A DNA stretch of 64,000 nucleotides from Nitrospinales bacterium (GCA_046757665.1 JBHHYO010000001.1:1-64000), one strand, 5' to 3'. Counted from the stretch's first letter, positions 16,170 to 39,186 are shown. Made by a program: numbers and translations. The notes: generated by a model not told the origin, from the sequence alone.

Positions 16170-16173
16170 CCGG

Positions 16174-16866: not shown

Positions 16867-16868
16867 TT

Positions 16869-20397: not shown

Positions 20398-20400
20398 CTT

Positions 20401-21375
20401 TTAAACGTTATACAAATCCAACTTGCCATGGTCCAAATTGCATTTTGTCCATTCAATGGTTTCCAACAACCCTGTTTCCAAATTATATTGGTTCTTCCAA
20501 TTGGTTTTTTGAATAAGTTTTGAATTGTCGCACAGCAATCGTTTAACCTCGCTCCCTGCCGGCCTCAACCGTTGAGTTTCGGGCTCAAGGGAAATCTCCT
20601 TACCCAGCAGTTTGGCTATAAAGCCGGCAAGGTCGCCGACGGAGATTTCTTCTTTCATGCCGATATTTGTAACTTCGCCACGAAGCGCATCCGATTTGGC
20701 GATCTCGATAAATCCTCCGACAACATCTTTTACAAATGTAAAATCTCTTGTTGGAAACAGATTGCCCAGCCGGATATTTTTTTTGTCGGCCAGAACCTGG
20801 GAAATAATGGTCGGTATAATTGCCCTCATGGATTGACGCGGCCCGTAGGCGTTGAAAGGCCTGACTATTTTTATGGGCGCGCCAAAGGAAAGATGAAAAC
20901 TCAAAGCCAGCTGGTCCGCGGCGATTTTCGTTGCCGAATAAGGGGATTGGCCGACCATGGGATGCTGTTCATCCATTGGCACATATTGAGATGAGCCGTA
21001 AACCTCGCTTGTCGAAGTGACCAAGACATTTTCGACTTCCATTTCCCTGGCGCTTTGAAGGATATTGTAGGTTCCCTCGATATTAGTTTTAATGTACGCC
21101 AAGGGAGAGACATAAGAATAAGGAATGCCCACCAAAGCCGCAAGGTGAAAAACCGTGTCTCGCCCCTCCATCGCTTTATGGACGGAATCAGAATCACGGA
21201 TGTCCCCGGAAATAATTTCGATGTCGTTTTTATACTTGGAAAAGTCCAGCCATCCCCAGCTGTTTCGCGAGTTGTAATGGACAAAGGCTCGAACTTTATA
21301 GCCTGATTCCACACATCTTTCCGTCAGGTGGGATCCTATAAACCCTCCCGCCCCGGTTACCAGAATATGCTTCAT
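20401..21375 (-). CDS. NDP-sugar 4,6-dehydratase, LegB-like SDR
   Basis: TGAGGFIGSHL, YNSRNSWGWLD, IPYSYVSP, STSEVYG and QSPYSATK. Confidence 0.85.
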   Translation of the reverse strand: MKHILVTGAGGFIGSHLTERCVESGYKVRAFVHYNSRNSWGWLDFSKYKNDIEIISGDIRDSDSVHKAMEGRDTVFHLAALVGIPYSYVSPLAYIKTNIEGTYNILQSAREMEVENVLVTSTSEVYGSSQYVPMDEQHPMVGQSPYSATKIAADQLALSFHLSFGAPIKIVRPFNAYGPRQSMRAIIPTIISQVLADKKNIRLGNLFPTRDFTFVKDVVGGFIEIAKSDALRGEVTNIGMKEEISVGDLAGFIAKLLGKEISLEPETQRLRPAGSEVKRLLCDNSKLIQKTNWKNQYNLETGLLETIEWTKCNLDHGKLDLYNV

Positions 21376-21738
21376 AAATCCATGCCCTTGGATGAACTAC
21401 AAAAACGGAGTGGATGGTTCTGCTACCCAATCAACTTTAATGGAAGTTGTTCGCGGCGTCCAGGAATGCGGATGCCGAATATCGAACGTATGATACTAGT
21501 CGAACACTATCCCGTCTACATAAATCGCCCGCAAGCTTGACTCACGCAGGGCACCGCTGTCTCAGCGTCTCAACAGCTCCACGGGCAAGAATAGCTGACC
21601 CTTCCGGCCCAATGACCGATAACTCTTTTCTGTGTTTCTTGTCCAGAATGTGATAATTTCTATCAATGGCAGTTTCCTCCTTTAATGTTTTACGCCTGAT
21701 CTTTTAAACCCTTTATCAGCCCGTTCCATCACCCAGCC

Positions 21739-23373: not shown

Positions 23374-24323
23374 AACTCATCATCCAAATTCCCTGCCTCA
23401 ACGAAGAGGAAACCCTGCCGGCTACTTTAGCGGATCTGCCGAAAGAGATCGACGGGGTGGATAGCATCGAAATCCTGGTCATCGACGACGGCAGTACGGA
23501 CCGCACCGTGGAGGTGGCGCGCGAGCACGGCGTCGACCACGTTCTTCGTTTGACCAACAACAAGGGTCTGGCCAAGGCGTTCATGCACGGCATCAACTAC
23601 GCCCTGGAGCAGGAGGCGGATATTATCGTCAACACCGACGCCGACAATCAATATCATGGAGGGGATATCCCCAAGCTGATTCAACCCATTATTGAGGGGC
23701 GGGCCGATATCGTCATCGGCGACCGGGAGGTGGAAACCATCAAGCATTTTTCGCCGTTGAAAATTTTTCTGCAAAAATTCGGCAGTTGGGTGGTGCGCCA
23801 GTTTTCGGGAACCGATATTCCGGACGTCACCAGCGGTTTTCGCGCCTATTCCCGGGAAGCCGCGCTACAACTTAACGTCGTCTCGGATTTCACCTACACC
23901 GTCGAAACCATCATCAGCGCCGGCAAGAAGAATCTGGCGATTACCCATGTTCCCATAAGAACCAATCCGCAATTGCGCGAATCCCGGTTGTTTCCCAGCA
24001 TCCGCGCCTACATCCAGCGAACGGTCATCACCATCATTAAAATTTACTCCATGTACAAGCCGCTGAAGGTGTTTTCCATCGTCGGCGGCGCCTCTTTTTC
24101 ATTGGGATTCATCATCGGTTGCCGTTACCTGTACTTTTTCTTTCAAGGCAGTACCGCCGGACACATCCAATCCCTGATTCTTTCGGCGATCTTGTTAATC
24201 GTCGGGTTTCAAATTATAATGATGGGAATCATGGCCGAGTTGATCGCCATCAACCGGCAACTCCTGGAAGATGTCCAGTTGAGGATCAAAAAAAAGGAAT
24301 TCCGGAAGGATCGATCCGGTTGA
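23370..24323 (+). CDS. GT2 glycosyltransferase with two C-terminal TM helices
   Basis: IQIPCLNEE, IDDGSTD, NTDADNQY and DVTSGFRAYSR. Confidence 0.92.
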   Translation: MKLIIQIPCLNEEETLPATLADLPKEIDGVDSIEILVIDDGSTDRTVEVAREHGVDHVLRLTNNKGLAKAFMHGINYALEQEADIIVNTDADNQYHGGDIPKLIQPIIEGRADIVIGDREVETIKHFSPLKIFLQKFGSWVVRQFSGTDIPDVTSGFRAYSREAALQLNVVSDFTYTVETIISAGKKNLAITHVPIRTNPQLRESRLFPSIRAYIQRTVITIIKIYSMYKPLKVFSIVGGASFSLGFIIGCRYLYFFFQGSTAGHIQSLILSAILLIVGFQIIMMGIMAELIAINRQLLEDVQLRIKKKEFRKDRSG

Positions 24324-24356
24324 TTTCTCCGTGATTTTTCACCCCGCTTCGGCCTC

Positions 24357-25121
24357 ATGATGTCACAAACAAATATTGGGCTGTACCAAAAATCAAGAAA
24401 AGTCGATAAAGAAGACTACGAGACTCCTTACGAATCGTTTGCGACCGATTTTTACCAGAGACTCATTACTGAAAAGCTAAAAGACCAAGATGCCAGAATC
24501 CTTGACGTGGGGTGTTTCAAGGGGATACTGGTAAACAAACTTCGGAGCTACAAATCATTTGGTCTGGACGTTACAGCGGATGGTTTTTTCAAACCCGGGA
24601 AATACATGGTTGGCACTGCCGAACATTTACCCGTCAAGTCCGATTCGCTGGATTGTGTTGCCATCACCGAAGTGATTGAACACATCATGGAACCCGCGAA
24701 AGTTTTTCAGGAAATTCACAGGGTTCTTAAGCCGAAAGGCTATTTATTGATTACCCACCCTAACAAATATAACCTCTTCGACGAGCTTATTGAACATATA
24801 AAAGAAAACAATACCGTGAGAAGGTTATTGAATCGTCCTCTTTACGAGGGGGTTCAACATGTACAGGAGTTTACCTACTCTGACACGATTGATTTCCTGA
24901 AACCGCTTAACTTCACCATTGAGTCCTGCCATGCGCTCACGTTTTCCCTGCACCGGATTTTTTCCATGTTTGTTTACGGAAGGTTAAAATGCACCCCCGT
25001 ATTCAAGTTAATAGAAAAAGTAATTCAATTGGAATATTTCTTGATGAGACGATTAGGGAAGGCGGGGCTTCCCTTGGCCGGTAGTTGCATTATGTTGTTC
25101 AAGGCATCGAAGACCGTTTAG
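24357..25121 (+). CDS. Class I SAM-dependent methyltransferase
   Basis: ILDVGC, EVIEHI and HRVLKPKG motifs. Confidence 0.85.
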   Translation: MMSQTNIGLYQKSRKVDKEDYETPYESFATDFYQRLITEKLKDQDARILDVGCFKGILVNKLRSYKSFGLDVTADGFFKPGKYMVGTAEHLPVKSDSLDCVAITEVIEHIMEPAKVFQEIHRVLKPKGYLLITHPNKYNLFDELIEHIKENNTVRRLLNRPLYEGVQHVQEFTYSDTIDFLKPLNFTIESCHALTFSLHRIFSMFVYGRLKCTPVFKLIEKVIQLEYFLMRRLGKAGLPLAGSCIMLFKASKTV

Positions 25122-25162
25122 AGTCAACGCTTCTTTTTCCCAATAGCCTTATTTCTCCAAAC

Positions 25163-26374
25163 ATGAAAAAAAACGTGCTCGTTTTCACCTCCACTTTTCC
25201 ACGATGGCAGTCCGATCCGGTTACGGCGCGGTTCGTTTTGGATTTGGCGAGGGAACTGACAAAATATTGCAACACCTACGTCCTGACCCCTCACACTCCG
25301 GGAGCGAAAAAGCATGAGGAATGGGATGGACTGAAAATCATCCGGTTTCCCTATTTTTATCCGCTGGCCTCGCAGGCGCTGGTAAACGGTTCCGGGATGC
25401 TGGCGTGTTTACGAAAAAACAAGCTTTCGATGGCGCAAATTCCCGCGTTCCTGCTTTGTCAACTCCAGGCGTTGCGCCGGGTGGTCAAGGAATTCAAAAT
25501 CGACGTGGTGAACAGCCATTGGATGATTCCCCAGGGTTTCAGCGCCGCATGGCTCAAACCCTCGCTGGGATTCAAGCATATTCTGACCATTCATGCGGCC
25601 GGACTGTTTGCCCTGCGGCGGTTACCCCTCGGCAAACAGATGGCTAAAATGATCGTCAGGAATACGGAAAAAATCTATAGCGTCAGCGCCTACAATCAGC
25701 GCATGTTGAGCGACCTGGTGCAAACCGAGGTTCAGGCTCAAATCCTTCCCATGGGCATTCACACCGGATTTTATGACGACAGCATGGACCAGCAAACCGC
25801 GCGGCAGGAGTTGGGAATCGGGGAAGGAAAAATCATCCTCTACGTCGGAAAACTCAGCGAAAAAAAAGGCGTCACCTATCTCATGCGGGCTTTCAGTCAA
25901 GTGGGCAAAGAATGTTCGGACGTCTCTTTGGTCATCGTCGGTGGAGGTGAACTGGAGCATCCCTTGAAATCAGAGGCGGAACGGTTGGGTATTTCCTCCA
26001 GAGTCATTTTCGCGGGATACCGGGGAAAAGAGGAAATCAAAAAATATTATAAAGCCTGCGATCTCGTCGTCATTCCTTCCATCATCGACTCCAGGGGAGA
26101 AACCGAGGGACTGCCCGTGGTTCTGTTGGAGGCATTGGCCTCGGGCAAACCCGTTGTGGCTACCCGGGTCGGCGGCATGGCCGATGTGGTGAGGGACGGG
26201 GAAAACGGGTTTCTCGTCCCCCAAAAAGAGCCGCGGGTGCTGGCGGAAAAAATCGAAATCGTATTCAACGTCGGTCCCGAAAACTTTTCCCAACAAGCTT
26301 TGAACTCCGCGAAAAAATACGATTGGGAAACCATTGGATTGGATTACAACAAAAGCGTTTTAAAACTTGTCTGA
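25163..26374 (+). CDS. GT4 glycosyltransferase
   Basis: TSTFPRW, YVGKLSEKKG and EGLPVVLLEALASGKPVVAT. Start ATG 25163 inferred. Confidence 0.9.
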   Translation: MKKNVLVFTSTFPRWQSDPVTARFVLDLARELTKYCNTYVLTPHTPGAKKHEEWDGLKIIRFPYFYPLASQALVNGSGMLACLRKNKLSMAQIPAFLLCQLQALRRVVKEFKIDVVNSHWMIPQGFSAAWLKPSLGFKHILTIHAAGLFALRRLPLGKQMAKMIVRNTEKIYSVSAYNQRMLSDLVQTEVQAQILPMGIHTGFYDDSMDQQTARQELGIGEGKIILYVGKLSEKKGVTYLMRAFSQVGKECSDVSLVIVGGGELEHPLKSEAERLGISSRVIFAGYRGKEEIKKYYKACDLVVIPSIIDSRGETEGLPVVLLEALASGKPVVATRVGGMADVVRDGENGFLVPQKEPRVLAEKIEIVFNVGPENFSQQALNSAKKYDWETIGLDYNKSVLKLV

Positions 26375-26461
26375 CGCGGTCGGCTGGATATTATGGAAGT
26401 ATTCCTTCCAACTCATAGCAAAACATTCGACCGCATCGGATTGAACAGGGACACGCAACCC

Positions 26462-27403
26462 ATGCCCGCTAAAAAACGGATGGCCATGCGGATTTTGGCA
26501 GTCATCGCCTTGATGGCGGCCTTTGGATTCATCGGCCGGGTCTGCTACAAAAACTGGGAACGGCTGGAGAATTTAACCGTTCACTTTGATTTGGCTTTCG
26601 TTGCGCTATCGGTTTTTTTGCTTTCCGCGGCCATCTTCAGCGCCGGTTGGGGCTGGTTTATTATTCTCAGGTCCGTTGGGATAAATGCGCCCTATCGCCT
26701 GGTGCAATATAACTGGTTTTTGTCGAACCTTGGCAAATACATTCCCGGAAAAATTTGGACCATTTCCAGCCGCGTTTATCTTCATAGCGCTCACAATCAC
26801 TCCGCGAAACAGGTGGTTTCCGCCAGTCTTCTTGAAGCTATATTCTCTTATACGGTAGCCGTGCTTGTCGTTTTAATCCTGGCGGTCTATCTGGGAAAAC
26901 TGAATGTTTATTTAGGCCCGCTGGCACTGATCTTTTTTCTTGGCTGTCTTTTCCTGTCTCCCAGGCTTTTCTCAAAAGCTCTGAACCTGGGTTTATCCTT
27001 GATTAAAAAAGGGGATATCCAAATCACCCTGGACATTGTGTCCCGGCTAAAAATTGCTTTTGTCTATTTGGGAGCTTTTATCTTCTGGGGCCTGGCTTTC
27101 TCCTTTTTCGTCAAATCGCTTTTCCCGGTGGCGCCCAGCGAATTCGCTTATTTCACCTTGTCCTTTGTTTTCTCCAGTCTGGCCGGCATGTTGGCATTTT
27201 TTGTTCCCAAGGGAGTGGGGGTCAGGGAAAGCATGTTGGTTCTCATGTTGTCACCAGTCATCGGCGAGCCGGCCGCCTTGGTGGCGGCCATCTCCTCCCG
27301 CTTATGGATTGTTTTGACGGAAGCTTTCCTGATGTTTCTCAGTTATCTGGCATTTAAGCCTAAAGCGGGCAAAGCTCCAGCTTTAGAAAAAGAAACAGCG
27401 TGA
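26462..27403 (+). CDS. Lysylphosphatidylglycerol synthase TM/UPF0104 flippase-like membrane protein
   Basis: SNLGKYIPGKIW and PKGVGVRE...SRLW signature; polytopic. Start uncertain (26393, 26462 or 26480). Confidence 0.8.
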   Translation: MPAKKRMAMRILAVIALMAAFGFIGRVCYKNWERLENLTVHFDLAFVALSVFLLSAAIFSAGWGWFIILRSVGINAPYRLVQYNWFLSNLGKYIPGKIWTISSRVYLHSAHNHSAKQVVSASLLEAIFSYTVAVLVVLILAVYLGKLNVYLGPLALIFFLGCLFLSPRLFSKALNLGLSLIKKGDIQITLDIVSRLKIAFVYLGAFIFWGLAFSFFVKSLFPVAPSEFAYFTLSFVFSSLAGMLAFFVPKGVGVRESMLVLMLSPVIGEPAALVAAISSRLWIVLTEAFLMFLSYLAFKPKAGKAPALEKETA

Positions 27404-27513
27404 GCCAAGAAATCAGGCCGTACTCTCTTATGATCGGCAGGCTCCTGTGTTATATTGTGAAATTAGCGGGTAATCCTGAAACCATGAAATTTTAAGACGC
27501 TTTTTTGAATGTC

Positions 27514-29064
27514 ATGAATATACAAGTACTCGATCGCGAAAAAAACAGCCTGACTTTTGCGGAAACCAACACGAACAAGCCTCTGGATATTCTTCTGATT
27601 TATCCGGGAACGAAAACCGACTTCCCGCGAACCCCTTTCAGTATCATGACTCTGGCCTCATGGATTAGAAAACATGGGTACAGTGTCAAGCTTATGGACG
27701 AAAGGGTGGAGGAGATCGACTGGGATTTGATTGGCGCCGCGAAGTTGATAGGAATCAGCTCAATGACGGGCCCGCAGTTGGCGGCGGCAGTTCCTTTGGC
27801 CAGGACAATAAAGGCCCGAGAGCCGGATACACCTCTTATCTGGGGCGGGCCCCATGTCTCTTTTTTTCCCGAGCAATCATGTCAATCCGATGTCGTTGAC
27901 TACGTTGTTGAAGCGGAGGGAGAACCGGTTATTATTGAGCTGATGAAAAAACTTCTTGCGGGAGAGGAACCCAAAAATGTTGCGGGAGTTACCTATAAAA
28001 ATCAGCAAGGGGAAATTATTTCATACCCGAAACCGCCGCAAATAGACCTGGATCTTTTGGATTTGCCTGCCTATGACATGATCGACATGAAAAAATATAA
28101 TGATCTCTCGAACGGCTTGAGCTATGAGTCCAGCAGAGGATGCCCCTACCCATGCAGGTTTTGCTATGTATATACGTTTCATGACCGCAAATTTCGCGGA
28201 AAATCTCCGCAAAAAGTGCTCGATGAAGTCAAATACTTGAAAAATAAATATGGAATAAAGAAGATTTATTTTACGGAAGATTATTTGTGGACTCAAAAGA
28301 AAAGAGCGCTGGAGCAGTTTCAATTATTTATCGACAATGATTTGAATATTACCTGGGAAGGGTTTTGCCGAGCCGATTTTCTTTCAAAGGTATCGGATGA
28401 AGAAATGGAAATTATCGCAAAGAGCGGCGCGGAAATTCTAACCCTTGGTTTGGAATCCGGGTCGGAAAGAATGCTAAAACATATTCAGAAGCATATCACC
28501 CTGGATCAGGCCAAGGCGGCCATCAAAAAATGCGTCAAACACAACATCATGACCACAAGCTCCTTCATTATTGGAATGCCCACGGAAACCGACGAGGATC
28601 TCGAAGATACTATTCGAATGTACAATACCCTTACCAGTTACTCTGACAATATAGAAATTAACGGGTTTTTCCTTTATGCGCCTTATCCCGGCGTTCCGTT
28701 ATATGACGAAGCCCTGGGAAATGGCTACAAGAAAATGAACTCTCTGGAGGAATGGTGCCAATGGAATTACAGTGATGCTTCCAACAACGTCTGGATAGAA
28801 AAAAAACGTCTGCACCGCTTGCAAACCCTGAGCATTTTGGTGCGCTTCAAGTATTTACTGCATCGGTTCAAATATTATTCCCAAAAATCGCCTCGGTATA
28901 AAGAAAAGAAACTGAACCGCCTGTCTTTGAGAATAGCTTTTAACCTTCTTGTTCCCTTCATAAGCCGGATTGCCGATTTTCGCTGGAAGCACCGGCTGTT
29001 TTCATGGGGGTATGAATGGAGGCTCTGGAGATGGTTTGTTGCCAAACGGTTTAATATCAACTAA
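27514..29064 (+). CDS. B12-binding radical SAM protein
   Basis: N-terminal B12-type domain (WGGPH, EGE), SSRGCPYPCRFC, GLESGS and FIIGMPTET. Confidence 0.9.
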   Translation: MNIQVLDREKNSLTFAETNTNKPLDILLIYPGTKTDFPRTPFSIMTLASWIRKHGYSVKLMDERVEEIDWDLIGAAKLIGISSMTGPQLAAAVPLARTIKAREPDTPLIWGGPHVSFFPEQSCQSDVVDYVVEAEGEPVIIELMKKLLAGEEPKNVAGVTYKNQQGEIISYPKPPQIDLDLLDLPAYDMIDMKKYNDLSNGLSYESSRGCPYPCRFCYVYTFHDRKFRGKSPQKVLDEVKYLKNKYGIKKIYFTEDYLWTQKKRALEQFQLFIDNDLNITWEGFCRADFLSKVSDEEMEIIAKSGAEILTLGLESGSERMLKHIQKHITLDQAKAAIKKCVKHNIMTTSSFIIGMPTETDEDLEDTIRMYNTLTSYSDNIEINGFFLYAPYPGVPLYDEALGNGYKKMNSLEEWCQWNYSDASNNVWIEKKRLHRLQTLSILVRFKYLLHRFKYYSQKSPRYKEKKLNRLSLRIAFNLLVPFISRIADFRWKHRLFSWGYEWRLWRWFVAKRFNIN

Positions 29065-29107
29065 AGTTATTTCTCAAACTCGTCAATCCAAAAAAGTTTC
29101 AAGCCTA

Positions 29108-30070
29108 GTGAACCTTCCGTTCGAGCCCATTCAAAAACCCTGCATTTTTATTACCTCGGGAGGCCGGACAGGCACTTTTTTCCTTTCAAAATTACTGGCG
29201 GTCGCCGTTCATGACTGCCATTCCGTTCAAGAACCCGATGTCCTTCGCGTGGATCAACCACTAATCAGTTTCAACGATAGGGAAAACTGGTATCAAAAAG
29301 CCCGGGATTTTGGTTTTTTCAGTATGGTTTTTGGAAAGTTTACTACCCTGGGCAGTGCCAGAGGGTTGTCTCTGGCCCGGCAAACAAATAAAATCGATGC
29401 CGTCTCTGCCGCCGCCAGGCTCCACCATCTTCGAAACCGTTACATTTGCCGGCTGGAAAAGTCCGTCTTTGCCGAATGTAATTTACAACTGGCAGGTTTG
29501 ATTGATATTATTCCACTGGTTTTTCCAAACTCAAAAACGGTCTTCATGATTCGTGATGGGCGTAACTGGGTTCGTTCCTGGCTCAACCTGTCCAACACCC
29601 CTTATGGCAAAAAGGATCCCCTTTATTACCTTCTTTCCGGCCGCCCCAAGGCTCAAATGATTCCCGATGATCCTTTTCGCAACCAATGGGAAAGATTTTC
29701 GCAATTTCAGCGGACCTGTTGGGCGTGGCGTTTCCACATCGAGTACGCGATAAAGTCGATCAAAGCAAATCCTCATGCAAAACTCGTAAAATATGAGGAC
29801 CTGTTCGAGGGCGCTCACCAAAAGGAATCCATAAACAATTTGTTAAAATATGTAACGGTTTTCCCAGATGGCTATCAAGCGGAATATCGATACAATGGAG
29901 AACTGTCAGGAAAAAAATTCCACGAATCCAGGCTCAACCAGCTTCCAAAGTGGGAAAACTGGTCCCCGGACCAGGTTAGGGAATTCCAGGAAGTTTGTGG
30001 CGATTTTTTGATTCAGCAAGGCTATGGGAAAGAACCTCAATGGCAGGAAATGACGGCCAAGGCTACATAG
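29108..30070 (+). CDS. Sulfotransferase-like protein
   Basis: FITSGGRTGTFFL (5'-PSB loop), IRDGRNWVRS (3'-PB) and VKYEDL. GTG 29108 start inferred. Confidence 0.75.
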   Translation: MNLPFEPIQKPCIFITSGGRTGTFFLSKLLAVAVHDCHSVQEPDVLRVDQPLISFNDRENWYQKARDFGFFSMVFGKFTTLGSARGLSLARQTNKIDAVSAAARLHHLRNRYICRLEKSVFAECNLQLAGLIDIIPLVFPNSKTVFMIRDGRNWVRSWLNLSNTPYGKKDPLYYLLSGRPKAQMIPDDPFRNQWERFSQFQRTCWAWRFHIEYAIKSIKANPHAKLVKYEDLFEGAHQKESINNLLKYVTVFPDGYQAEYRYNGELSGKKFHESRLNQLPKWENWSPDQVREFQEVCGDFLIQQGYGKEPQWQEMTAKAT

Positions 30071-30103
30071 GAGCTTGCAACCGGTCTCGTTGCGCGAAAA
30101 AGA

Positions 30104-30682
30104 GTGAGCAATTATCTTTCCATGAAATTCCGGTATAATGAATGGCTCAGGGAATTTTTTTATCTGTTCAAGCCGTTCTTTGACGATAACATCAATGCCT
30201 CTTACACGCTTTTCAATCTTTTTCTTTTGATCCCTTTTTTGAGAATTTGGATTTTTCGCCTTAAAGTCAGCCGCACGGGGAAAAACTTGAAATTGAAATA
30301 TCCCGTTTATGTGCAAAACGGCAGAAATATTTCATTAGGAGACAACGCCACCTTCGGTAGCGGTTGCCATATCCAGGCGGGTAGGAAAAGCGTCATCAAA
30401 ATAGGAAACAACCTGACTTGCGGACCGGGGGCTATGATTTTTGCGGCAAGCCATGGCTCCAGGAAAGGCGAATTGATCAAGTACCAGGATTTGGTGGAAA
30501 AAGATATTGTCATGGGAGACGATGTGTTTTTGGGGGCGGGTTCGGTGGTTTTGGAAGGCACCACCCTGGCCGACGGCACCCTTGTGGGAGCGAACTCCGT
30601 TGTGGGCCCCAATTTCAAAAACGAGCCTTTTGAAATTCTTCAGGGCGTTCCCGCAAAACTTAAGAGAAAGAGAAAGGCCTGA
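30104..30682 (+). CDS. Hexapeptide-repeat acyltransferase
   Basis: Beta-helix repeats; MGDDVFLGAGSVV...GANSVV...GVPAK. Confidence 0.85.
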   Translation: MSNYLSMKFRYNEWLREFFYLFKPFFDDNINASYTLFNLFLLIPFLRIWIFRLKVSRTGKNLKLKYPVYVQNGRNISLGDNATFGSGCHIQAGRKSVIKIGNNLTCGPGAMIFAASHGSRKGELIKYQDLVEKDIVMGDDVFLGAGSVVLEGTTLADGTLVGANSVVGPNFKNEPFEILQGVPAKLKRKRKA

Positions 30683-30784
30683 TTCCCTGGTTTTCCTGCG
30701 GGCACCCTATTCCACTGGGGACAACAAGCCACCGCGAAATCGAATGACCTCGGTCAACCTCTACAGAAATAGTCTGTTTCCGTA

Positions 30785-31330
30785 ATGCAAAAAAAAGCGA
30801 TTGTATTGTGGTTCACGGGGATGTCGGGGGCGGGCAAATCGACCATTGCCGAACTGGCGGCTGAACGATTAAAATCCGAAGGGTTTAAAGCATCCGTCAT
30901 AGACGGCGATCAGGTTCGCAAAAATCTTCATAAGCACCTTTCGTTTTCCAGGGAAGATATTCTGGAAAATAATCGGTTGATCGCCCAATTATGCGCGCAA
31001 CATCTTTCAGGTTTTGATGTTATTCTGGTCCCCATCATATCTCCCTACGCTCTGGGCAGGCGACGGGCGCGGGAAATCATCGGCGATACCTTTTTCGAAG
31101 TTTACATCAAAGCCTCGTTGGAGGAGCTTATCAAGAGAGATACAAAAGGTCTGTATCAAAAAAGTATGGAAGGAAAAATGGACGACTTAATCGGGTTTTC
31201 TCCGAAAAGCCCCTATGAAGAACCCCAGTCCCCCGACCTCTCAATCAATACCGATCGGGAAAATCCTCAAAACAATGTCGAAAAATTGATGGAATCCGTG
31301 CGCCGGTGGATGAAGCGCCCCACACACTGA
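30785..31330 (+). CDS. cysC: Adenylyl-sulfate (APS) kinase
   Basis: LWFTGMSGAGKST, DGDQVR, FSREDILENN, RDTKGLY and PYEEP. Confidence 0.93.
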   Translation: MQKKAIVLWFTGMSGAGKSTIAELAAERLKSEGFKASVIDGDQVRKNLHKHLSFSREDILENNRLIAQLCAQHLSGFDVILVPIISPYALGRRRAREIIGDTFFEVYIKASLEELIKRDTKGLYQKSMEGKMDDLIGFSPKSPYEEPQSPDLSINTDRENPQNNVEKLMESVRRWMKRPTH

Positions 31331-31398
31331 CGATACCGTCGAAATGAACGGAAAATCTTTCCCCAAAGGCTTCTCACTCAATTCCTGGAACTAATTTC

Positions 31399-33582
31399 AT
31401 GAGCAAAGAAATTCTGTGCACCCTGGGGCCGGCCTCATTGAAGAAAACCGTATTGCAACGGATGAACGATCTGCCGGTCACCTTGTTTCGAATTAACCTT
31501 TCCCACACCTCGCTCGACGACCTCAGCGAAAATATCCGGCTGATTCAAAGCATAAGCGACAAGCCCCTCTGTATCGACACCGAGGGGCCTCAGATAAGGA
31601 CGGGGAAGGTGGCCGAGGGGCGGGTCTTGCTCCAGGAGGGGAGCTTTTTAACGATTCATCGAGAAAGCGTCCCGGGGAATGCCCAGGAAGTAGCTTTCTA
31701 TCCCGCGGTAGCCATCGACCAGATTCAACGGTTCGATTTCATTTCCATAGACACGCACGGTGTCATGGTCCAGGTTGTAGAAAAGAAAGACGGTCGGTTG
31801 CGCGCAAAAGTAATCACGGAGGGTTTTATAGGGAGCAACAAAGCCGTTACGGTGGCGAACCGTTCGGTGATTTTGAATTCGCTGACGCAAAAAGATGAAA
31901 AAGCCATCCAAATCGCCGGTCATTTCGGTATCAGGCATTTCGCCCTCTCATTTGCGAGTCGCCGGGAAGATGTCCTTGAATTGCGGCGGTTGACGGGGAA
32001 AAACAGCACGCTCATTGCAAAAATAGAGAACCGCTCCGGCGTCGATCATGTCGAATCCATCGCCAGGGAATCCGACGCCATTCTCATCGACAGGGGGGAC
32101 CTCTCCCGCGAGGAACCCATCGAGGCCATTCCGCTTCTTCAAAAACACATCATCCAGGCGGCAAAAAAAGTGGGGACAAAGGTTTACGTGGCGACCAACC
32201 TTCTGGAATCCATGGTAACCCAGGCAAAACCCACCCGCGCCGAGGTAAACGATGTCTTCAACACTTTAATTGACGGTGCGGATGGCCTTGTCCTGGCGGC
32301 GGAGACCGCTATTGGAAGTAATCCCGTGGGATGCGTGAACATGATTTCCAAGCTGATTCACCAGTATGACAATTACTCCAAATTCGGCATTCAAACGATC
32401 AAATATGACAAACGGTCTCTGTTGATTGAACCTCACGGAGGTTCCCTGATTAACCGGTTTTTAGAAAATCCCGATATCGATGAAATCGGCAGGCTTCCCT
32501 GTTTGACGGTGGACGAAAAAATCGTTTTGGATTGTGAACAGATCGCCTTTGGCGTGTATTCTCCTTTACAGGGTTTTATGAACCGGGAGGAGGTTGAAAA
32601 TGTTTTGGATCATTATCATCTGCCCAGCGGCGATGTCTGGACTTTACCCATCGTTTTTCAAATTCCAAAAGAACGGGCGGCAAAACTTAAGCCGGGCGAC
32701 ACGGTGGCCCTGTTTAACGAAACTTTGAACGAGCGGTTTGCCCTTCTGCACCTGGAAGAAATATTTTCGCTGGATTTGGATTCCCTCGCCAAGCGGATGT
32801 TCGGCACGGATTCATCCGACCATCCGGGAGTGGATCAGGTAAAAAATGCGGGGAATACGTTTCTCGGCGGCAAAATCGACTTGATCAAGGTCCCGGAAAA
32901 ACCGTCTCAAACGACGCCTTACATTTTAAGGCCGGCGGATACACGCATGATTTTTGAACAAAAAAACTGGTTTCGGATCGTTGGTTTCCACACCCGGAAC
33001 GTCATCCACCGGGGGCATGAATTTATTCAAATGAAAGCCCTCAACGATCACTATTGCGACGGTTTGTTTATCAGCCCCGTTATCGGCCCCAAGAAGAAAA
33101 ACGACTTCCAAAGCGAAGTCGTGCTCCACGCTTATCAGACCATGGTGGATTGCAATCTGTATCCCAAAAACAAAGTTCTGATAGGCGCCTTCCTGACTTA
33201 TCCGCGCTATGCCGGCCCTCGGGAAGCGGTGTTTACGGCCCTTTGTCGAAAAAATTTCGGATGTTCTCATTTTATCATTGGGCGTGACCATGCCGGCGTC
33301 AAAGACTTTTATCATGCTACGGCATCCGCTCGTTTCTTCGATGATCTGGGAGATATCGGCATCGAACCGGTTTTTTTCGATGAGGTTGTCTATTGCCGCC
33401 AATGCAAGACGCATCGGTTGTCTTGCAACCATTCGGAGACGGATGTCCAGCGCATCAGTGGTTCCCAGGTCAGGCAAACCTTTTGTGAAGGCAAGAGCTT
33501 TCCCTCCTGGTTGTTGCGTGAGGAAATATCGGAGATTTTGAGCAAGGCAAGGAAGACCGGCAAACAAATCTTTGTAACGTAA
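31399..33582 (+). CDS. Pyruvate kinase-sulfate adenylyltransferase fusion protein
   Basis: About aa 1-325 is pyruvate kinase (CTLGPAS, RINLSH, AKIEN, RGDL, ATNLLESM, PTRAEV). About aa 340-727 is Sat (PHGG, FHTRNVIHRGH, YAGPREA, GRDHAG). Confidence 0.88.
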   Translation: MSKEILCTLGPASLKKTVLQRMNDLPVTLFRINLSHTSLDDLSENIRLIQSISDKPLCIDTEGPQIRTGKVAEGRVLLQEGSFLTIHRESVPGNAQEVAFYPAVAIDQIQRFDFISIDTHGVMVQVVEKKDGRLRAKVITEGFIGSNKAVTVANRSVILNSLTQKDEKAIQIAGHFGIRHFALSFASRREDVLELRRLTGKNSTLIAKIENRSGVDHVESIARESDAILIDRGDLSREEPIEAIPLLQKHIIQAAKKVGTKVYVATNLLESMVTQAKPTRAEVNDVFNTLIDGADGLVLAAETAIGSNPVGCVNMISKLIHQYDNYSKFGIQTIKYDKRSLLIEPHGGSLINRFLENPDIDEIGRLPCLTVDEKIVLDCEQIAFGVYSPLQGFMNREEVENVLDHYHLPSGDVWTLPIVFQIPKERAAKLKPGDTVALFNETLNERFALLHLEEIFSLDLDSLAKRMFGTDSSDHPGVDQVKNAGNTFLGGKIDLIKVPEKPSQTTPYILRPADTRMIFEQKNWFRIVGFHTRNVIHRGHEFIQMKALNDHYCDGLFISPVIGPKKKNDFQSEVVLHAYQTMVDCNLYPKNKVLIGAFLTYPRYAGPREAVFTALCRKNFGCSHFIIGRDHAGVKDFYHATASARFFDDLGDIGIEPVFFDEVVYCRQCKTHRLSCNHSETDVQRISGSQVRQTFCEGKSFPSWLLREEISEILSKARKTGKQIFVT

Positions 33583-33583
33583 T

Positions 33584-35593
33584 ATGATCGTCCCCGGCTT
33601 GTTTCTCACGGTTGTCATTGGTTATTTGCTGGTGGTTTCGTTAAATCCCTCCTCAGGCGCCGGTGAGCGTCTCAGCCTGTCGGCGCCTTTCGGCCTGGGG
33701 TGTACCACCCTGGTTATTTGGGTTCTGCTTGCGCTTCACCTTCCCCTTTCGCCAACCTCGCTGATGACTGCCCAGATGTCCCTTGCCGCCGGCCTGCTGT
33801 ACCTCGCCTGCCGAACGAAAACCATAGCTCTGTCATCGAGCCGTCCGGTCTTTCCCAAGGTTAATGCGGGTTTGATTCTCATTCTCTTGCTGGTGGGAGC
33901 CGGACTGGTGTTCAATATTTTTTTTCCTATAACCGTGTCCGACGGCATTGGCTATAAAATCCATGGGATCGTTGCGGTGGACAAAAAAAATCTCATGGCT
34001 TTTGAGGACGTCTTGCATATTGGCGACCAAAACAGAACGCTGGGGTTTCAATTAATCTCGGGATTTTTTTATTTGTTTGATTTTGATTACCCCAAGCTGG
34101 TCCAGTCCGTATTCTACGCAAGTATGTTGGGATTCTTTTATGTCTCGATTCGCAAATTCATGGACTCCGGCCCGGCGAGGGGTATGACCCTGCTATTGGC
34201 GACCGCTCCCATGGTTTGGTGGCAATCCTTTTTGTATCTGAACAATCTTTCGTCGGGGGTTTATTTTTTGTGCGGAACTTTATACTGGTTTTTCGCCATT
34301 CATTACAAACAACCGCGCTACATGTTGATTGCATCGTTTGCATTCATGCTTGCCGCCTGGACGAGGTATGAACTCATCGTAATGTATATGATCCCGCTGG
34401 CGTTCACCTTTTTCCTGTCCGCAAAAAACAGGCAGGCCAGGCCTGCTTTATTGCTTTTGATTTTTCCCCTGATTTTTTCGGGCGCATGGGCCGCCCATAG
34501 TTTCGCTTACTACCCTGAAATGAAGCGCTCCGCCCACTATTTTTATATTTTTTTATTTCTGCTTTCGAGCGGCATTATTTTCGGCGTTATTCATGCGTTG
34601 CAGATCAGGCTTCGGCTCGTTATGGGAGCCATAGTTGCCGTTATCGCGTCAGCCGCCGTCTTCGTGATTTTTAATGAGCTTTTTCAGGATAAAATTGTGC
34701 TGTTGCAACGTGTGCTACTGGCCAAACTTCTCAACAATACGATGGTTCAGTGCGTTTGGGGGTTGGGGATTTTGCTGGTATTGCTTGTTCCCGTCTATTA
34801 CAGAGGGTTTCAGCCGGCCCAAAAATACCTGTTGTTCAATTTAATTTCTTTATTCATGGGCTTCACCCTTCTCTTTTCGTTAGTTACCATGGGACACCCC
34901 ATGCTGGACGAACCCGTCGTTGAAAGAATAAAGTTCTTCCTCGAGTTTCCGGGCAGGATTGCGGTGAGAACGTCCAGCCGGGAGTTTTTTATATTATTTC
35001 CTTCCCTGCTGTTCATGTTGGGGACGACGATTTATCAGAGCAATCTGACCTCAAAAGTTGCCCTGTCTTTTAAAAAGTCCTTGTTCAAAAACAGTTTGTT
35101 TAGCGGTCTCAATTGTTTGGTCGTGGGGAATTTGCTTCTGATCTCCGTAGTTTTTCTGATTCCAAGGGCCGTTTTTATGAAAAACCATTTTGGAGAATCT
35201 CATTCCGAGTTGGAGAGAACCGGCGGCCCAAGAGATATTCCCAACCTTTATCAGCCAACATACATTATTGCTCATGCCGTTTCCCGGCATACTCCAGAGG
35301 ACTCCGTTGTTCTTTTCCCCTTTCCCTATGGAGCGCTGACCTTTAAAAAAGAGCCCTATAATTCTCTTGGTTTGTTTGCCGGCGCTGACGCCCTGTATCC
35401 CCGGGTCCTGTTTTGGGGAAAAGCGGAGCTTGACAAAATCAGGAAATCATTTCCAAATAAGCGAATTTACCGAGTGACCTATCCGGGCTGGTTGGACAAT
35501 CAATGCAAAAACCATCCCGATGGAAAATCCCTGGAGTACCATGAATGGTATCTTTGCCCCATTGACGGGCGCAATCTACGCCCTGAGGGATAA
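33584..35593 (+). CDS. Polytopic membrane protein, possible GT-C glycosyltransferase
   Basis: Many TM segments, FPITVSDG loop, AAWTRYE and a soluble C-terminal tail. Confidence 0.55.
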   Translation: MIVPGLFLTVVIGYLLVVSLNPSSGAGERLSLSAPFGLGCTTLVIWVLLALHLPLSPTSLMTAQMSLAAGLLYLACRTKTIALSSSRPVFPKVNAGLILILLLVGAGLVFNIFFPITVSDGIGYKIHGIVAVDKKNLMAFEDVLHIGDQNRTLGFQLISGFFYLFDFDYPKLVQSVFYASMLGFFYVSIRKFMDSGPARGMTLLLATAPMVWWQSFLYLNNLSSGVYFLCGTLYWFFAIHYKQPRYMLIASFAFMLAAWTRYELIVMYMIPLAFTFFLSAKNRQARPALLLLIFPLIFSGAWAAHSFAYYPEMKRSAHYFYIFLFLLSSGIIFGVIHALQIRLRLVMGAIVAVIASAAVFVIFNELFQDKIVLLQRVLLAKLLNNTMVQCVWGLGILLVLLVPVYYRGFQPAQKYLLFNLISLFMGFTLLFSLVTMGHPMLDEPVVERIKFFLEFPGRIAVRTSSREFFILFPSLLFMLGTTIYQSNLTSKVALSFKKSLFKNSLFSGLNCLVVGNLLLISVVFLIPRAVFMKNHFGESHSELERTGGPRDIPNLYQPTYIIAHAVSRHTPEDSVVLFPFPYGALTFKKEPYNSLGLFAGADALYPRVLFWGKAELDKIRKSFPNKRIYRVTYPGWLDNQCKNHPDGKSLEYHEWYLCPIDGRNLRPEG

Positions 35594-35643
35594 CTCAAAC
35601 CCCTCCTCAAGCTTTCGCATTTCGACAGGGTATAAAAAGATTT

Positions 35644-36666
35644 TTAGACGGAAGGATGGGCGGGAGCTTTAAATGCTTCTTTTGCCTCGCGGTAAAGCTG
35701 TTCCCGGCGGTGCGTGTGTTTCGCCGAAAAATGGAAGACCGTCAGGTTTTTTACCGCGGCCATTTTCGCCAGCGTGCCGGCTTGTTTCGAGGTTAAATGG
35801 CACCGCTCCCGGCCACGCTCCTCTTCCTCGGCGAGGAAGGGCGACTCGCAAAAAAACCGGTCCGCGCCGCGAACCAGCTCCACGATTCTTGCGCTGTTCT
35901 CTTTATTGAATACCGTGTCCGTGACATAACCGATCTTTTGCCCGGGAGAAATGAGGACCAAATCCTCCCGCAACTCTCCCAGGGCATATTGCCGGTTCAC
36001 CACTTTCCCGTTGGCGCTTACCGGCACGGACACCAATTCTTCATCCGGCCGCTTTTGGTGGATCATTTGTTTCAGCTCGTTCAACCAGGAGCCGGGAACG
36101 AAGTCCCGGGCATCCAGACGTTCTTTCCGGACATTGACGTGGAACTTCTCGGTCAACGTAAAACCCAGACAAGGCACGCGGTGTTCCAGAATAGCCGCAT
36201 GAACGGCAAACGAAGGCTCGTCCCATAACAGACCCTTCACAAAAGGCTCCCGGCACTCACCGGTTTTTTCAAACCGGTCGACAGCCCGAAACGTTGCCCG
36301 CAACAACTCCTCCTGCCTCACCTCCACCACCTGTAGCGTGATCGACTCCGCATAGCGGTCTACCAGGTTCCAGGTGAATCCCGCCAGTTTCCCCTGCACG
36401 TTGGCGATGAAATTCTCAGGGCCGTATAAACAGATCGTTTTGTTTCGGCCAAAACACACCCGAAGCAACTGGTCGAATCCGATGAAATGGTCGATATGAG
36501 TATGACTGACAAAAACGTGCGTCACATTCAGCAGGGTTTTGTTGGTGATGCGCGACAAATTTCCCAGGTCGAACAACAGGACGCGGCTCTCGTACAAAAA
36601 CTGCACCAGAAGCCCCGGGTCGCCGAACGGATCGTTAACCAGTTTTGGATGAAAAATCGGTTTCAT
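35644..36666 (-). CDS. Ribonuclease Z-like MBL-fold hydrolase
   Basis: PKLVNDPFGDPG, SHTHIDHFIG (HxHxDH), YVTDT, HLT and FHFS. Confidence 0.85.
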   Translation of the reverse strand: MKPIFHPKLVNDPFGDPGLLVQFLYESRVLLFDLGNLSRITNKTLLNVTHVFVSHTHIDHFIGFDQLLRVCFGRNKTICLYGPENFIANVQGKLAGFTWNLVDRYAESITLQVVEVRQEELLRATFRAVDRFEKTGECREPFVKGLLWDEPSFAVHAAILEHRVPCLGFTLTEKFHVNVRKERLDARDFVPGSWLNELKQMIHQKRPDEELVSVPVSANGKVVNRQYALGELREDLVLISPGQKIGYVTDTVFNKENSARIVELVRGADRFFCESPFLAEEEERGRERCHLTSKQAGTLAKMAAVKNLTVFHFSAKHTHRREQLYREAKEAFKAPAHPSV

Positions 36667-36719
36667 AGTCAGTTGACAGTTGGCGGTTGCCAGTTGACGG
36701 TTGTCAACCGCCAACTGCC
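36667..36719. repeat. Heptamer (RGTTGNC) tandem and inverted repeat
   Basis: AGTTGAC AGTTGGC GGTTGCC AGTTGAC GGTTGTC followed by the reverse-type AACCGCC AACTGCC. Confidence 0.7.
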
Positions 36720-37805
36720 TTCAACAAATACGCTTCTATAAATTGGTCCAGGTCGCCGTCCAGGACGGCATCGACGTTGCCGGTTTCCACCTGGGTTCGC
36801 AAATCCTTCACCATGCGGTAGGGATGCAGGACATAAGAACGAATCTGGCTTCCCCATTCGATCTTTTTTTTGTCCTTTTCGAGGCCCTTTATCTCCTCCC
36901 TTTGCTTTTCCTGTTCCAGCTCATACAGCCGGGCTTTCAGGACTTTCAAACAAGACGCCTTGTTTTTGTGTTGCGAGCGCTCGTTCTGGCACTGAACCAC
37001 GATACCGGAGGGGACGTGCGTCATGCGGACGGCGGAGTCGGTCGTATTGACTCCCTGGCCTCCCGGCCCGGACGCCCGGAACACATCGATTTTGAGATCG
37101 GCCTCGAGGATGTCCACCTCGACGTCCTCATCAATTTCCGGATAAACAAACACCGACGCAAAGGAAGTGTGGCGGCGCTTGTTGGCGTCGAAGGGGGAAA
37201 TCCGCACCAGCCGGTGAACGCCGATCTCCGCTTTCAAATAACCGTAGGCATAGTCGCCGGTAAACAGAAGCGTGGCGCTTTTGATCCCGGCTTCCTCGCC
37301 GTATTGCCTGTCCAGAATTTCGGATTTGAACCCGTGCCGCTCGCCCCAGCGGAAATACATGCGCATCAGCATCAAGGCCCAGTCTTGCGACTCGGTGCCG
37401 CCGGCGCCGGAGTTGATCGCCAGAATGGCATTGTTGAAATCGTTGTCGCCGGAGAGCATGGCCTTGAATTCCGCCTCCGCCAGGTTATGCTCGAGAGCGG
37501 TCAGCGAAGATTGTATTTCGGAAATCAGGGACTCCTCGTTTTCCTCCTCGCAGAGGGAGATCATCGCTCCGGCATCCTCGCATTCCTGATGCAGGGACTT
37601 CCAAAGGTTGACGGGGCGTTGGCAGACGGATCGTTGTTGAAGGGTCTTTTTTGCCGCGATGTTATCGTTCCAGAAATCCGGCCGGGAAACCTCCCGGTCC
37701 AAAATCTCCAGCTCTTTCAGCTTGTCGGCAACGTCAAAGATAGCCTCGCAGCCGCTCCACCCGCCGGCTCACATCCTGATATTTTTTCTTCAATTCTTCC
37801 AGCAT
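36704..37805 (-). CDS. prfB: Peptide chain release factor 2 with programmed +1 frameshift
   Basis: ATG 37805 with AAGGAG SD; MLEELKK...RGYL then CTT-TGA-C at 37739-37733. The +1 frame carries SPF and GGQ. Confidence 0.96.
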
Positions 37806-38016
37806 AACGCTCCTTATCGGATAATGGGGAATAGATTCATCGACTCATTGTCTTTAATCCGGGCGCGAATTGCAAGCGGTCAAATCAGGACTTTCGGGCA
37901 GATGGCCATTCCCCGGCTGGGTTAAAATTTATTTGGATTCATCCGAAAATCGTTTAGAATGAACTGTTGAATATAGCAACGGCCGCAATAGACCTGCCGC
38001 ATCGCCCTGGAGCCAG

Positions 38017-39186
38017 ATGAATTTAGCCGCACCCACAAAACCCAAGAAAGAAGCCTCCCCCACCGCAACCCTGTCCAAGAACGGCGGTCAAGGCCCGGTC
38101 AGGGAGATGATCAAGGGTTGGATCAAAAAACTGCCGTTTTTTCTGGAAGCGGATTATTATCGGCGCAAAATTTATGATTCCCCTCTGTTCGATTTTTCCG
38201 TGAAACCCTTGGCCGACACCCTCGCCGAGTGGCCGCGGGCGTTGGTTCTTGACATCACCAACCGATGTAATGCCAAGTGCTCGTGGTGCCCGCAACCGCA
38301 ACTGGAGGATGTCGGCGCCATGAAAATGCCTTTGTACCGAAAAATCATCGACGACTACGCCGTCCGCGGCGGGGTGGTTCATTTCGGTACCTTTGGCGAA
38401 CCGCTGATGGACAAAACGTTCGCGGAAAAAGTCCGCTATTTGAAAAACTATCCTTCCATACAAAAGGTCGAGATGGTCACCAACGCCTTTTTCCTGAATG
38501 AAAAAATCGTTCCGACGCTGATCGAAAACAAAGTGAATGTCGAGATCAGTCTGGACGAGCTGGAAAAGGAGACTTTCGAAGAAATCAAGAAAATGAGTTA
38601 CGATGTTGTGCGCGCCAACATTCTTGAATTTTTGAAGCTCAACGACCGGTCCGCGGAACCGGTCAACGTCAACTTCCGCGTCAAATCATCCCTTTCCAGG
38701 CAACACACGATGGCCCATGAACTGTTCCGCGAACTTGCTTCACATCGTTGCACCATCGAACTCACCCCCATTGACGAGGACAGCATCACCACCTGGGCGG
38801 GCCGGTTCGACAAAATGGCGTTTTATGAAGATCACATGAAAAACACCGCCATCGTAAAAGATCACAACCCCAAGGAGTTCAACAAAACCAACACCGCGCC
38901 CTGCAACCAATTGTGGAAATGGATGGTGGTATACTGGGACGGGAGCGTGGTGCTTTGTTGCGTCGATATGTTTTCCTCCACCATTCTGGGAAACCTGAAC
39001 GACAACACGATCGAGGAAATATGGACGGGGCCCGTGCTCACGCAACTGCGACAAAAAATGATCCAAAGGAAACGCTTTGAAATCCCCATTTGCCAGGACT
39101 GCGACCTCCACCTGAGTTGGCGCTATTTAAAGACCTGCTACAAGCCCGACGGCAGTTTGTCCCATCACTTAAACTTCATCAGTTAA
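38017..39186 (+). CDS. Radical SAM protein with SPASM/twitch domain
   Basis: CNAKCSWC, GEPLMD and PCNQLW...DGSVVLCC...CQDC. Confidence 0.9.
   Translation: MNLAAPTKPKKEASPTATLSKNGGQGPVREMIKGWIKKLPFFLEADYYRRKIYDSPLFDFSVKPLADTLAEWPRALVLDITNRCNAKCSWCPQPQLEDVGAMKMPLYRKIIDDYAVRGGVVHFGTFGEPLMDKTFAEKVRYLKNYPSIQKVEMVTNAFFLNEKIVPTLIENKVNVEISLDELEKETFEEIKKMSYDVVRANILEFLKLNDRSAEPVNVNFRVKSSLSRQHTMAHELFRELASHRCTIELTPIDEDSITTWAGRFDKMAFYEDHMKNTAIVKDHNPKEFNKTNTAPCNQLWKWMVVYWDGSVVLCCVDMFSSTILGNLNDNTIEEIWTGPVLTQLRQKMIQRKRFEIPICQDCDLHLSWRYLKTCYKPDGSLSHHLNFIS

Follow-up and report, generated by a model that had tools for sequence, protein, structure and literature searches.

3′-Phosphoadenosine 5′-phosphosulfate (PAPS) is the universal sulfate donor. 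Its synthesis is costly and self-inhibiting, and pyruvate kinase (PK) and phosphoenolpyruvate (PEP) are added to it in the test tube. In the bifunctional enzymes that join ATP sulfurylase (Sat) to adenosine 5′-phosphosulfate (APS) kinase (Aquifex aeolicus 2gks, family NF004040, animal PAPSS1/2), a sulfate activator is coupled to a helper that pulls the unfavourable first step. In some algae, ATP sulfurylase is fused to inorganic pyrophosphatase, and rhizobial NodPQ/NodH constitute a PAPS-dependent sulfation module of the Sat, CysC and sulfotransferase type. Here we describe a gene in which PK is joined to Sat, located in a 64,000-nucleotide stretch of DNA from a marine Nitrospinales bacterium of the Nitrospinota (GCA_046757665.1, JBHHYO010000001.1:1-64000), the whole of which is referred to as the window. 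We propose, with a probability of roughly 70%, that the PK half of the fusion uses PEP to recycle the ADP released by APS kinase to ATP and thereby feeds PAPS to glycan sulfation.

The Sat half of the fusion aligns to 2gks (E 5.8e-52), but the partner fused to it is PK, and APS kinase is encoded by a separate gene; the relatives P0195, P0212 and P0227 do carry APS kinase on the chain. The algal enzyme likewise has its helper on the same chain as ATP sulfurylase; however, it removes inorganic pyrophosphate (PPi), whereas PK would remove ADP and regenerate ATP. The stand-alone Sats of Methanothermococcus thermolithotrophicus (8a8d/8a8g) and Thermus thermophilus (1v47) share with the fusion the PUA-like and catalytic domains, the HxxH and GRDHAG motifs, and the C-terminal Cys/His cluster, at 36–41% identity, and differ from it in the absence of the N-terminal PK extension and in the motif FQTRN, which is FHTRN in the fusion. 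Canonical PKs (E. coli PykF 1pky, Pseudomonas aeruginosa 7oo1, and the 475-residue PK of this genome) share the A barrel, the B cap, and the catalytic residues at about 33% identity, whereas the fusion lacks their C-terminal allosteric and tetramer domain, has the signature of its own clade, and scores below the equivalog cut-offs. The logic that we propose is the same as that of an engineered PAPS cascade, in which Sat, APS kinase, and PK with PEP were combined so that ADP was removed and ATP restored; as far as the available part of that report goes, the cascade used separate commercial enzymes, in contrast to the natural single polypeptide known here from sequence (PMC9885120). According to the same part of the report, omission of PK/PEP recycling left PAPS "practically missing", and an enzyme-ADP-APS dead-end complex was the cause.

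In the proposed mechanism, the Sat half would convert ATP and sulfate to APS and PPi, a reaction with an unfavourable equilibrium, and CysC would draw this step forward by converting APS and ATP to PAPS and ADP. The PK half would re-phosphorylate the CysC-derived ADP at the expense of PEP, yielding pyruvate and ATP. The local concentration of ATP would be kept high and that of ADP low, so that the dead-end APS kinase-ADP-APS complex would be avoided and the Sat step pulled forward. The net reaction would turn sulfate, ATP, and PEP into PAPS, PPi, and pyruvate. PAPS would then pass to the sulfotransferase-like enzyme of the glycan cluster for the production of a sulfated surface glycan, and the CysD/CysN system of the genome would serve sulfur assimilation separately. 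A preliminary description of this DNA had already read the fusion as a possible self-fuelling supply of PAPS. Comparison supports that reading through the retained PK residues, the fusions to APS kinase, the unfused operons, and the sulfation loci, whereas we infer the PK activity, the use of ADP as the acceptor, and the surface glycan as the end product, together with the activity of the Sat half and a gain through proximity or channelling. The present analysis adds to the earlier one the unfused operons of Nitrospinota, the Pfam-checked PK-APS kinase fusions, residue counts across the whole PK clade, the exchange of glutamine for histidine in Sat, the separate assimilatory system, and a cultured carrier. 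If the proposal is correct, it shows how microbes pay for the sulfation of their surface glycans, the PK-Sat family marks sulfated-glycan loci in many uncultured phyla, and the fusion offers a compact catalyst with which heparin-like and other products could be sulfated enzymatically.

The fusion is encoded by one uninterrupted open reading frame (ORF) at 31399..33582 of the + strand, with an ATG start and 727 codons for amino acids. The window was taken from a draft assembly of 160 contigs, and nothing else was found in favour of an assembly or gene-calling artefact that united two separate genes. We consider such an artefact hardly conceivable. The same three domains (PK, PUA_2, and ATP-sulfurylase) are present in all 120 homologs listed of more than 4000, which are 685–752 residues long and 48–70% identical to the fusion. 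The fusion is encoded across the junction in all 80 metagenome loci fetched with the family alignment, a few of which are clipped by a contig end. The segment 30700-33700 is unbroken, with 0 differences, on contigs of two sequencing runs (depths 16.7 and 12.3); these runs are not independent, because they represent two samples of one study, which is possibly the source of this DNA. Furthermore, a 730-residue member is carried by cultured Methyloversatilis discipulorum (WP_029143666.1), and in complete genomes of cultured Methyloversatilis the 730-residue member is located on contigs of 4.25 and 4.38 Mb. The junction of PK and Sat is not an assembly artefact, and the cultured carrier makes the hypothesis directly testable.

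Pfam identifies both PK and ATP-sulfurylase domains on the chain, and the ORF is open through the junction, in agreement with the preliminary description of a PK barrel joined to a full Sat domain. The match to PF00224 covers profile positions 5-327 of 328 (residues 4–312) and thus includes the B cap as well as the A barrel. The C-terminal domain of PK, which holds the allosteric site and the tetramer interface, has no Pfam match in the 727-residue chain: the barrel stops at residue 312 and is followed by a linker and by PUA_2 from residue 343, so that Sat stands in place of the PK C-terminal domain, as had been described. The motifs quoted earlier can all be read in the translation, namely AKIENRSG, DRGDLSRE, VATNLLESM, and PTRAEV in the PK half and IHRGHE, RYAGPREA, IGRDHAGV, and YCRQCKTHRLSCNH in the Sat half. 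The AlphaFold2 model, calculated with an alignment of 31 family members, has a mean predicted local distance difference test score (pLDDT) of 88.5 and a predicted template modelling score of 0.72, with both halves confident and residues 334–345 as the only disordered stretch. These residues are predicted to form a short flexible linker that joins two well-folded enzymes. In Foldseek comparisons, the PK half superimposes on PK chains 3srf_F and 1e0u_A with root-mean-square deviations of 2.8–2.9 Å across 338–341 columns, and the Sat half matches 8a8d/8a8g and 1v47 with a target TM-score of about 0.90; in sequence, the Sat half matches 8a8d at 8.3e-88 and 1v47 at 5e-81. None of the 120 matched PDB sequences spans both halves, the 60 listed match PK or Sat alone, and each of the Foldseek rows shown is a match to PK or to Sat, with no chain covering both.

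Among the NCBIfam models, the chain scores above the cut-off of NF003166 for Sat (388.7 bits, cut-off 387) and slightly below that of TIGR00339, also for Sat (313 against 322.95 bits). It does not reach the cut-offs of NF004491 for PK (272.6 against 432 bits) or NF004040 for the bifunctional Sat-APS kinase (235.1 against 669 bits), no APS_kinase domain was matched by Pfam on the 727-residue chain, and NCBIfam contains no model specific to a PK-Sat fusion. The protein passes as a member of the Sat family; it does not pass as a canonical PK, on account of the missing C domain and the equivalog scores below the cut-offs, or as a bifunctional PAPS synthase, which carries APS kinase on the chain.

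The preliminary description had left it open how widespread the fusion is and whether it had been described. The family is large, widespread across phyla, and apparently unstudied. The homologs listed bear source names that include Nitrospina, Omnitrophota, Brocadiaceae, Deltaproteobacteria, Alphaproteobacteria, and Bacteroidota, and their database names, assigned by automatic annotation, are merely "pyruvate kinase" or "sulfate adenylyltransferase". No description of a natural PK-Sat fusion was found in the openly searchable full-text literature, a scope outside which supplements and subscription journals lie. In the available part of a Nitrospinota genome paper, Sat and Pyk are named only as separate pathway enzymes (PMC10839748).

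When the PK half by itself was searched against 1.84 billion representatives, most of the nearest 150 matches were fusions, and canonical PKs of 470–479 residues came only towards the end of the list, with about 35% identity. Domain content was used to classify 165 sequences (149 representatives, 11 listed homologs, and 5 proteins from genomes) into 96 PK-Sat, 3 PK-Sat-APS kinase, 2 PK-APS kinase, and 64 PK-only sequences, the last group including fragments, about 30 standalone proteins of 317–376 residues, and 7 canonical PKs. The triple fusions, with the order PK-PUA-Sat-APS kinase according to Pfam, are P0195, P0212, and P0227 (904–930 residues); they appeared only in the search of representatives, and none was found among the 84 loci. 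Pfam also identified the two fusions of PK to APS kinase without Sat (P0132 and P0248). In a FastTree phylogeny of 150 PK domains, 141 form one clade with SH-like support of 100, which contains all the fusions and 31 short standalone PKs, whereas the 7 canonical PKs lie outside. This clade consists of PKs without the C-domain. The starred branches of the tree imply that the PK-Sat label changed at least 14 times within the clade, and the domains have therefore been repeatedly joined and separated, with the caveats that the rows were picked by similarity to the query and that FastTree support is local. Independent fusion events tie one PK clade to both sulfate-activating enzymes, Sat and APS kinase. 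Two members of the family have other partners: the 786-residue P0246 has a Phosphodiest domain N-terminal to PK (Pfam), and the 478-residue P0122 joins a PK of the same clade to a CBS domain, with no Sat. Genes of the alkaline-phosphatase superfamily (Phosphodiest/Sulfatase) adjoin the fusion or cysC at L076:8504-9973 and L093:3921-5627.

Residues R31, N33, S35, H36, D60, R67, K208, E210, D234, T266, and E302 of the PK half are invariant in 31 fusions that are 48–69% identical. The same catalytic residues are retained in at least 137 of the 141 clade members, which are about 35–70% identical, and K148 of the B domain is lysine in 128 members and arginine in 10. We take the equivalents in rabbit-muscle PK to be R73, N75, S77, D113, R120, K270, E272, D296, T328, and E364, and assume the catalytic roles by this numbering. 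In the Sat half, H537 and H540 of HxxH and G628, R629, H631, and G633 of GRDHAG are invariant in the 31 fusions and align with the motifs of 8a8d and 1v47. Fungal ATP sulfurylase has an APS-kinase-like allosteric domain, and the PK half could by analogy be a non-catalytic regulatory or scaffolding domain that senses PEP or ADP or builds an oligomer. The loss of the allosteric C-domain, the score below the PK equivalog cut-off, and the replacement by A300 of a serine kept in all 7 canonical PKs sampled are in favour of such a role. However, the B cap is retained, as are the phosphoryl-transfer and metal-binding residues, and conservation of the latter at this level of divergence is not expected of a mere scaffold. 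We therefore regard a non-catalytic PK half as quite improbable.

The genomic context links the fusion to PAPS synthesis and sulfation. In the window, cysC, the fusion, and an ORF with a weak Sulfotransfer_3 match lie on the same strand within 4.6 kb, so that sulfate activation is clustered with a sulfotransferase-like gene. The cysC gene said to lie directly upstream is a separate gene that ends 68 nt before the fusion, and the sulfotransferase-like gene reported two genes further up is present, with a weak Pfam match. The neighbourhood was surveyed in 79 loci including the window, which were obtained by collapsing fusions at least 95% identical (6 pairs) and dropping L010, which encodes Sat-CysC with no PK; the 25 non-redundant loci whose flanks each reach 3 kb or more are referred to as well flanked. 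The survey rests mainly on metagenome contigs, and a scan of genome contigs with a single protein gave five loci, one of which was L010. Pfam labels were taken from representatives and spread to BLAST clusters. The greedy ORF picker discards any gene whose overlap with a longer ORF exceeds 60 nt, and it lost the sulfotransferase-like ORF of the window and several cysC genes. Therefore, tblastn was used to count cysC, and the numbers given for sulfotransferases are minima, because the picker is imperfect and the sulfotransferase family is divergent.

A cysC gene was found within 1.5 kb of the fusion in 34 of the 79 loci (18 of the 25 well flanked) and within 250 bp in 29, where it is located downstream in 23 and upstream in 6 (16 of the 25 well flanked). 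At least 36 loci, including at least 14 of those well flanked, have a Pfam sulfotransferase within four ORFs. One or the other feature is present in 52 of the 79 and 21 of the 25 loci, and both occur together in 18 and 11, respectively; the proximity to cysC or a sulfotransferase gene that the preliminary description had noted at one locus extends to most well-flanked loci. Other recurrent neighbours are glycosyltransferases, NeuB, CMP-sugar synthetases, DegT aminotransferases, flippases, Wzy/Wzz, TauE-type exporters, CysQ-type phosphatases, B12 radical SAM enzymes, and sulfatase/AlkP-superfamily proteins. A gene of the HpcH/HpaI aldolase family, another family of PEP/pyruvate-binding barrels, lies downstream of the fusion at position +1 in L007, L008, and L015 and at +2 in L033; these loci include metagenome-assembled genomes of Nitrospina. 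Near the PK-Sat fusion of L076, a 456-residue protein (L076:12781-14151) joins APS kinase to Inositol_P, a CysQ-type phosphatase of 3′-phosphoadenosine 5′-phosphate.

The partners of the PK clade also bear on which enzyme the PK half serves. It could work mainly for Sat, by raising ATP for sulfate adenylylation or by handling another nucleoside diphosphate, and the downstream product may then partly be APS. Sat is indeed the usual fusion partner, as the counts of architectures show, cysC is absent within 1.5 kb from 7 of the 25 well-flanked loci, and the changes to E62 and Q65 around the cation/nucleotide region leave room for altered specificity. However, Sat releases no ADP, and PK beside Sat alone would have no local substrate. 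The fusions of PK to APS kinase without Sat bind PK to the ADP-producing step, which favours the recycling of ADP over a supply of more ATP for Sat, and the close proximity of cysC in this and most well-flanked loci points in the same direction. We therefore consider it unlikely that the PK half serves mainly Sat. The replacement of APS kinase by PK, which would phosphorylate APS with PEP, was rejected, because cysC is usually adjacent or fused.

The genome encodes a second, canonical PK of 475 residues and two genes of the Inositol_P family (CysQ-type). Contig 18 carries CysD beside a CysN-APS-kinase-like protein, and a CysH-like gene is found on contig 42. The fusion, which is the only Sat-type ATP sulfurylase of the genome, is therefore an extra, dedicated sulfate-activation set within the glycan cluster. 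Its status as the sole Sat and the presence of the CysH-like reductase would fit a module for assimilatory sulfate reduction and cysteine synthesis. In contrast, the CysD and CysN-APS-kinase-like pair is encoded elsewhere, and the fusion sits amid glycosyltransferases, sugar-nucleotide enzymes, and the sulfotransferase-like gene. Moreover, a full-length copy was found in only 8 of the 120 Nitrospinota genomes searched, a distribution that fits an accessory gene but not one belonging to the core of assimilation. A role in assimilation instead of glycan sulfation is thus very improbable.

Several observations weigh against the recycling of ADP for glycan sulfation as proposed here. The PK half scores below the NCBIfam PK equivalog cut-off (TIGR01064, 260.6 against 306.4 bits), and the sulfotransferase match in the window is weak (Sulfotransfer_3, 28.2 bits against a cut-off of 27). 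Of the 25 well-flanked loci, 7 lack a nearby cysC and 4 have neither cysC nor a recognised sulfotransferase, although these four are still located amid polysaccharide or nonulosonic-acid genes. The loci were chosen by similarity, and many are related and do not represent independent events, so that we claim no statistical test for the counts. Finally, several residues near the active site of PK are changed in almost all clade members. Residue 65 is glutamine in 138 of the 141 members, whereas it is lysine in the canonical PKs sampled and glutamate in E. coli PykF; the other changes are E62 (127 members), D231 (139), S236 (131), R/K237 (133), N267 (133), and A300 (124). The clade has DTEGxQIR in comparison with DTKGPEIR in E. 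coli PykF and DLQGPKIR in the canonical PK of this genome, IDRGDLSR in comparison with ARGDLGVE, ATNLLESM in comparison with ATQMLESM, and LAAETA in comparison with LS(A/G)ETA, the last three comparisons being with canonical PKs. PK position 117 presumably governs K+ dependence, which fits the title of PDB 7r6y, "E117K mutant pyruvate kinase from rabbit muscle", among the Foldseek rows.

The Sat half differs from its stand-alone relatives in a corresponding manner. The motif at 32989-33003 (residues 531–535) is FHTRN, and FH(T/S)RN, with histidine for glutamine, occurs in 161 of the 162 fused proteins, whereas FQTRN is found in 8a8d, 1v47, and the unfused Sats of two Nitrospinota genomes, G024 and G037. 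QTRN is a sulfate/phosphate-binding motif, the glutamine of which contacts sulfate in yeast ATP sulfurylase. The clade signature in the PK half and the FH(T/S)RN change are the main grounds for considering a more specialised mechanism. We speculate that the clade without the C-domain might be a dedicated PK of PAPS synthesis instead of a housekeeping PK joined to Sat by chance. It would form an assembly of three enzymes together with Sat and APS kinase, in which APS kinase would hand ADP to PK and receive ATP in return, apart from the cell pool, and sulfation would be driven directly by PEP. Residues E62, Q65, D231, S236, R237, N267, and A300 and the glutamine-to-histidine change of Sat would then be adaptations to this coupling, for example through an altered cation dependence or a changed handling of nucleotides or anions. 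We consider this extension possible but doubtful, and it is held with much less confidence than the recycling of ADP itself.

The full-length fusions of Nitrospinota are in genomes G000, G001, G013, G015, G016, G059, G061 (two copies), and G107, and pieces of the fusion cut by contig ends are present in G006 and G014. In G002 (L094:4484-6683), the gene is split into two ORFs, of 412 and 331 residues, which overlap by 35 nt; the break lies within the PUA domain. The Sat motif pattern had no match in the second ORF, and the split could represent a frameshift, a pseudogene, or a real division of the gene. A 412-residue protein nearly identical to the first ORF (P0188) is also present in the database. 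Genomes G024 (L092:6155-8704) and G037 (L091:5052-7631) contain the same enzymes unfused: cysC, sat (356 residues), and a PK barrel of 317 residues follow each other on the same strand with gaps or overlaps of 1–4 nt. In G098, a 337-residue PK is directly followed by cysC. The PKs of G024 and G037 form their own long branch outside the main PK clade (FastTree), have the canonical lysine at the position of Q65, and contain PSIAE where the fusions have PTRAE. These PKs may have branched off early, or a PK lacking the C-domain may have been paired with Sat and CysC independently a second time.

Table 1 Genes and domains of the PK-Sat locus, in positions of the window
Feature	Coordinates	Strand	Evidence
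Sulfotransferase-like gene, probable PAPS consumer	28970..30070	+	Sulfotransfer_3 E 2.9e-6, Sulfotransfer_1 E 8.4e-4
Hexapeptide-repeat acyltransferase (sugar O-acetyltransferase type)	30104..30682	+	Pfam Hexapep 1.5e-10
cysC, APS kinase, 181 residues	30785..31330	+	APS_kinase 6.5e-43; TIGR00455 166.2 bits (cut-off 138.7)
PK-Sat fusion gene	31399..33582	+	ORF, Pfam, homologs, bridging contigs, AlphaFold2
PK A barrel and B cap, no C-terminal domain (residues 4–312)	31408..32334	+	PF00224 E 1.3e-62
Predicted flexible interdomain linker (residues 334–345)	32398..32433	+	Sole AlphaFold2 segment with pLDDT <50
PUA-like N-terminal domain of ATP sulfurylase (residues 343–497)	32425..32889	+	Pfam PUA_2 (PF14306) 2.1e-40
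ATP sulfurylase catalytic domain (residues 508–716), FHTRN..HRGH, GRDHAG, Cys/His cluster	32920..33546	+	PF01747 3.3e-70
669-residue membrane protein	33584..35593	+	Begins 1 nt past the fusion stop codon

All genes from 21739 to 35593 are on the + strand (Table 1). According to Pfam, the fusion is preceded, in this order, by GT2, a methyltransferase, GT4, an LPG_synthase_TM-like membrane protein, a B12-binding radical SAM protein, the sulfotransferase-like ORF, the hexapeptide acyltransferase, and cysC. The P-loop residues G12, G17, and K18 and the D40-G41-D42 segment of CysC are invariant in 21 CysCs adjacent to fusions. The translation of the sulfotransferase-like ORF contains a GRTGT loop, its true start may lie downstream of the listed TTG, and in L012 and L019 the fusion is closely preceded by homologs that are 50–59% identical to it. 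The top NCBIfam matches of the acyltransferase are polysaccharide acetyltransferases of the WbbJ/WcaF type, all under their cut-offs. The membrane protein that follows the fusion had no Pfam or NCBIfam match; a homolog 41% identical to it occupies the same position in L012, and PMT_2/GT39-like clusters among its ESM Atlas feature and structure neighbours provide a lead towards a GT-C type (PMT_2/ArnT-like) glycosyltransferase.

A scan of 21000-38500 for promoters and terminators yielded nothing decisive on operon structure. Farther out, the window contains more glycosyltransferases, sugar-nucleotide enzymes, acetyltransferases, and radical SAM enzymes. The G+C content is 44–50% between 16 and 36 kb, a segment that covers the sugar-modification and sulfation genes, and 52–59% on the flanks; the low-G+C island (16000-36000) would fit a glycan locus that varies between strains and was possibly transferred. 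As listed, the B12-binding radical SAM gene (27505-29064) shares 95 nt with the sulfotransferase-like ORF, and a cluster of 10 B12-binding radical SAM proteins, excluding the copy in the window, is encoded within four ORFs of the fusion in 10 other loci.

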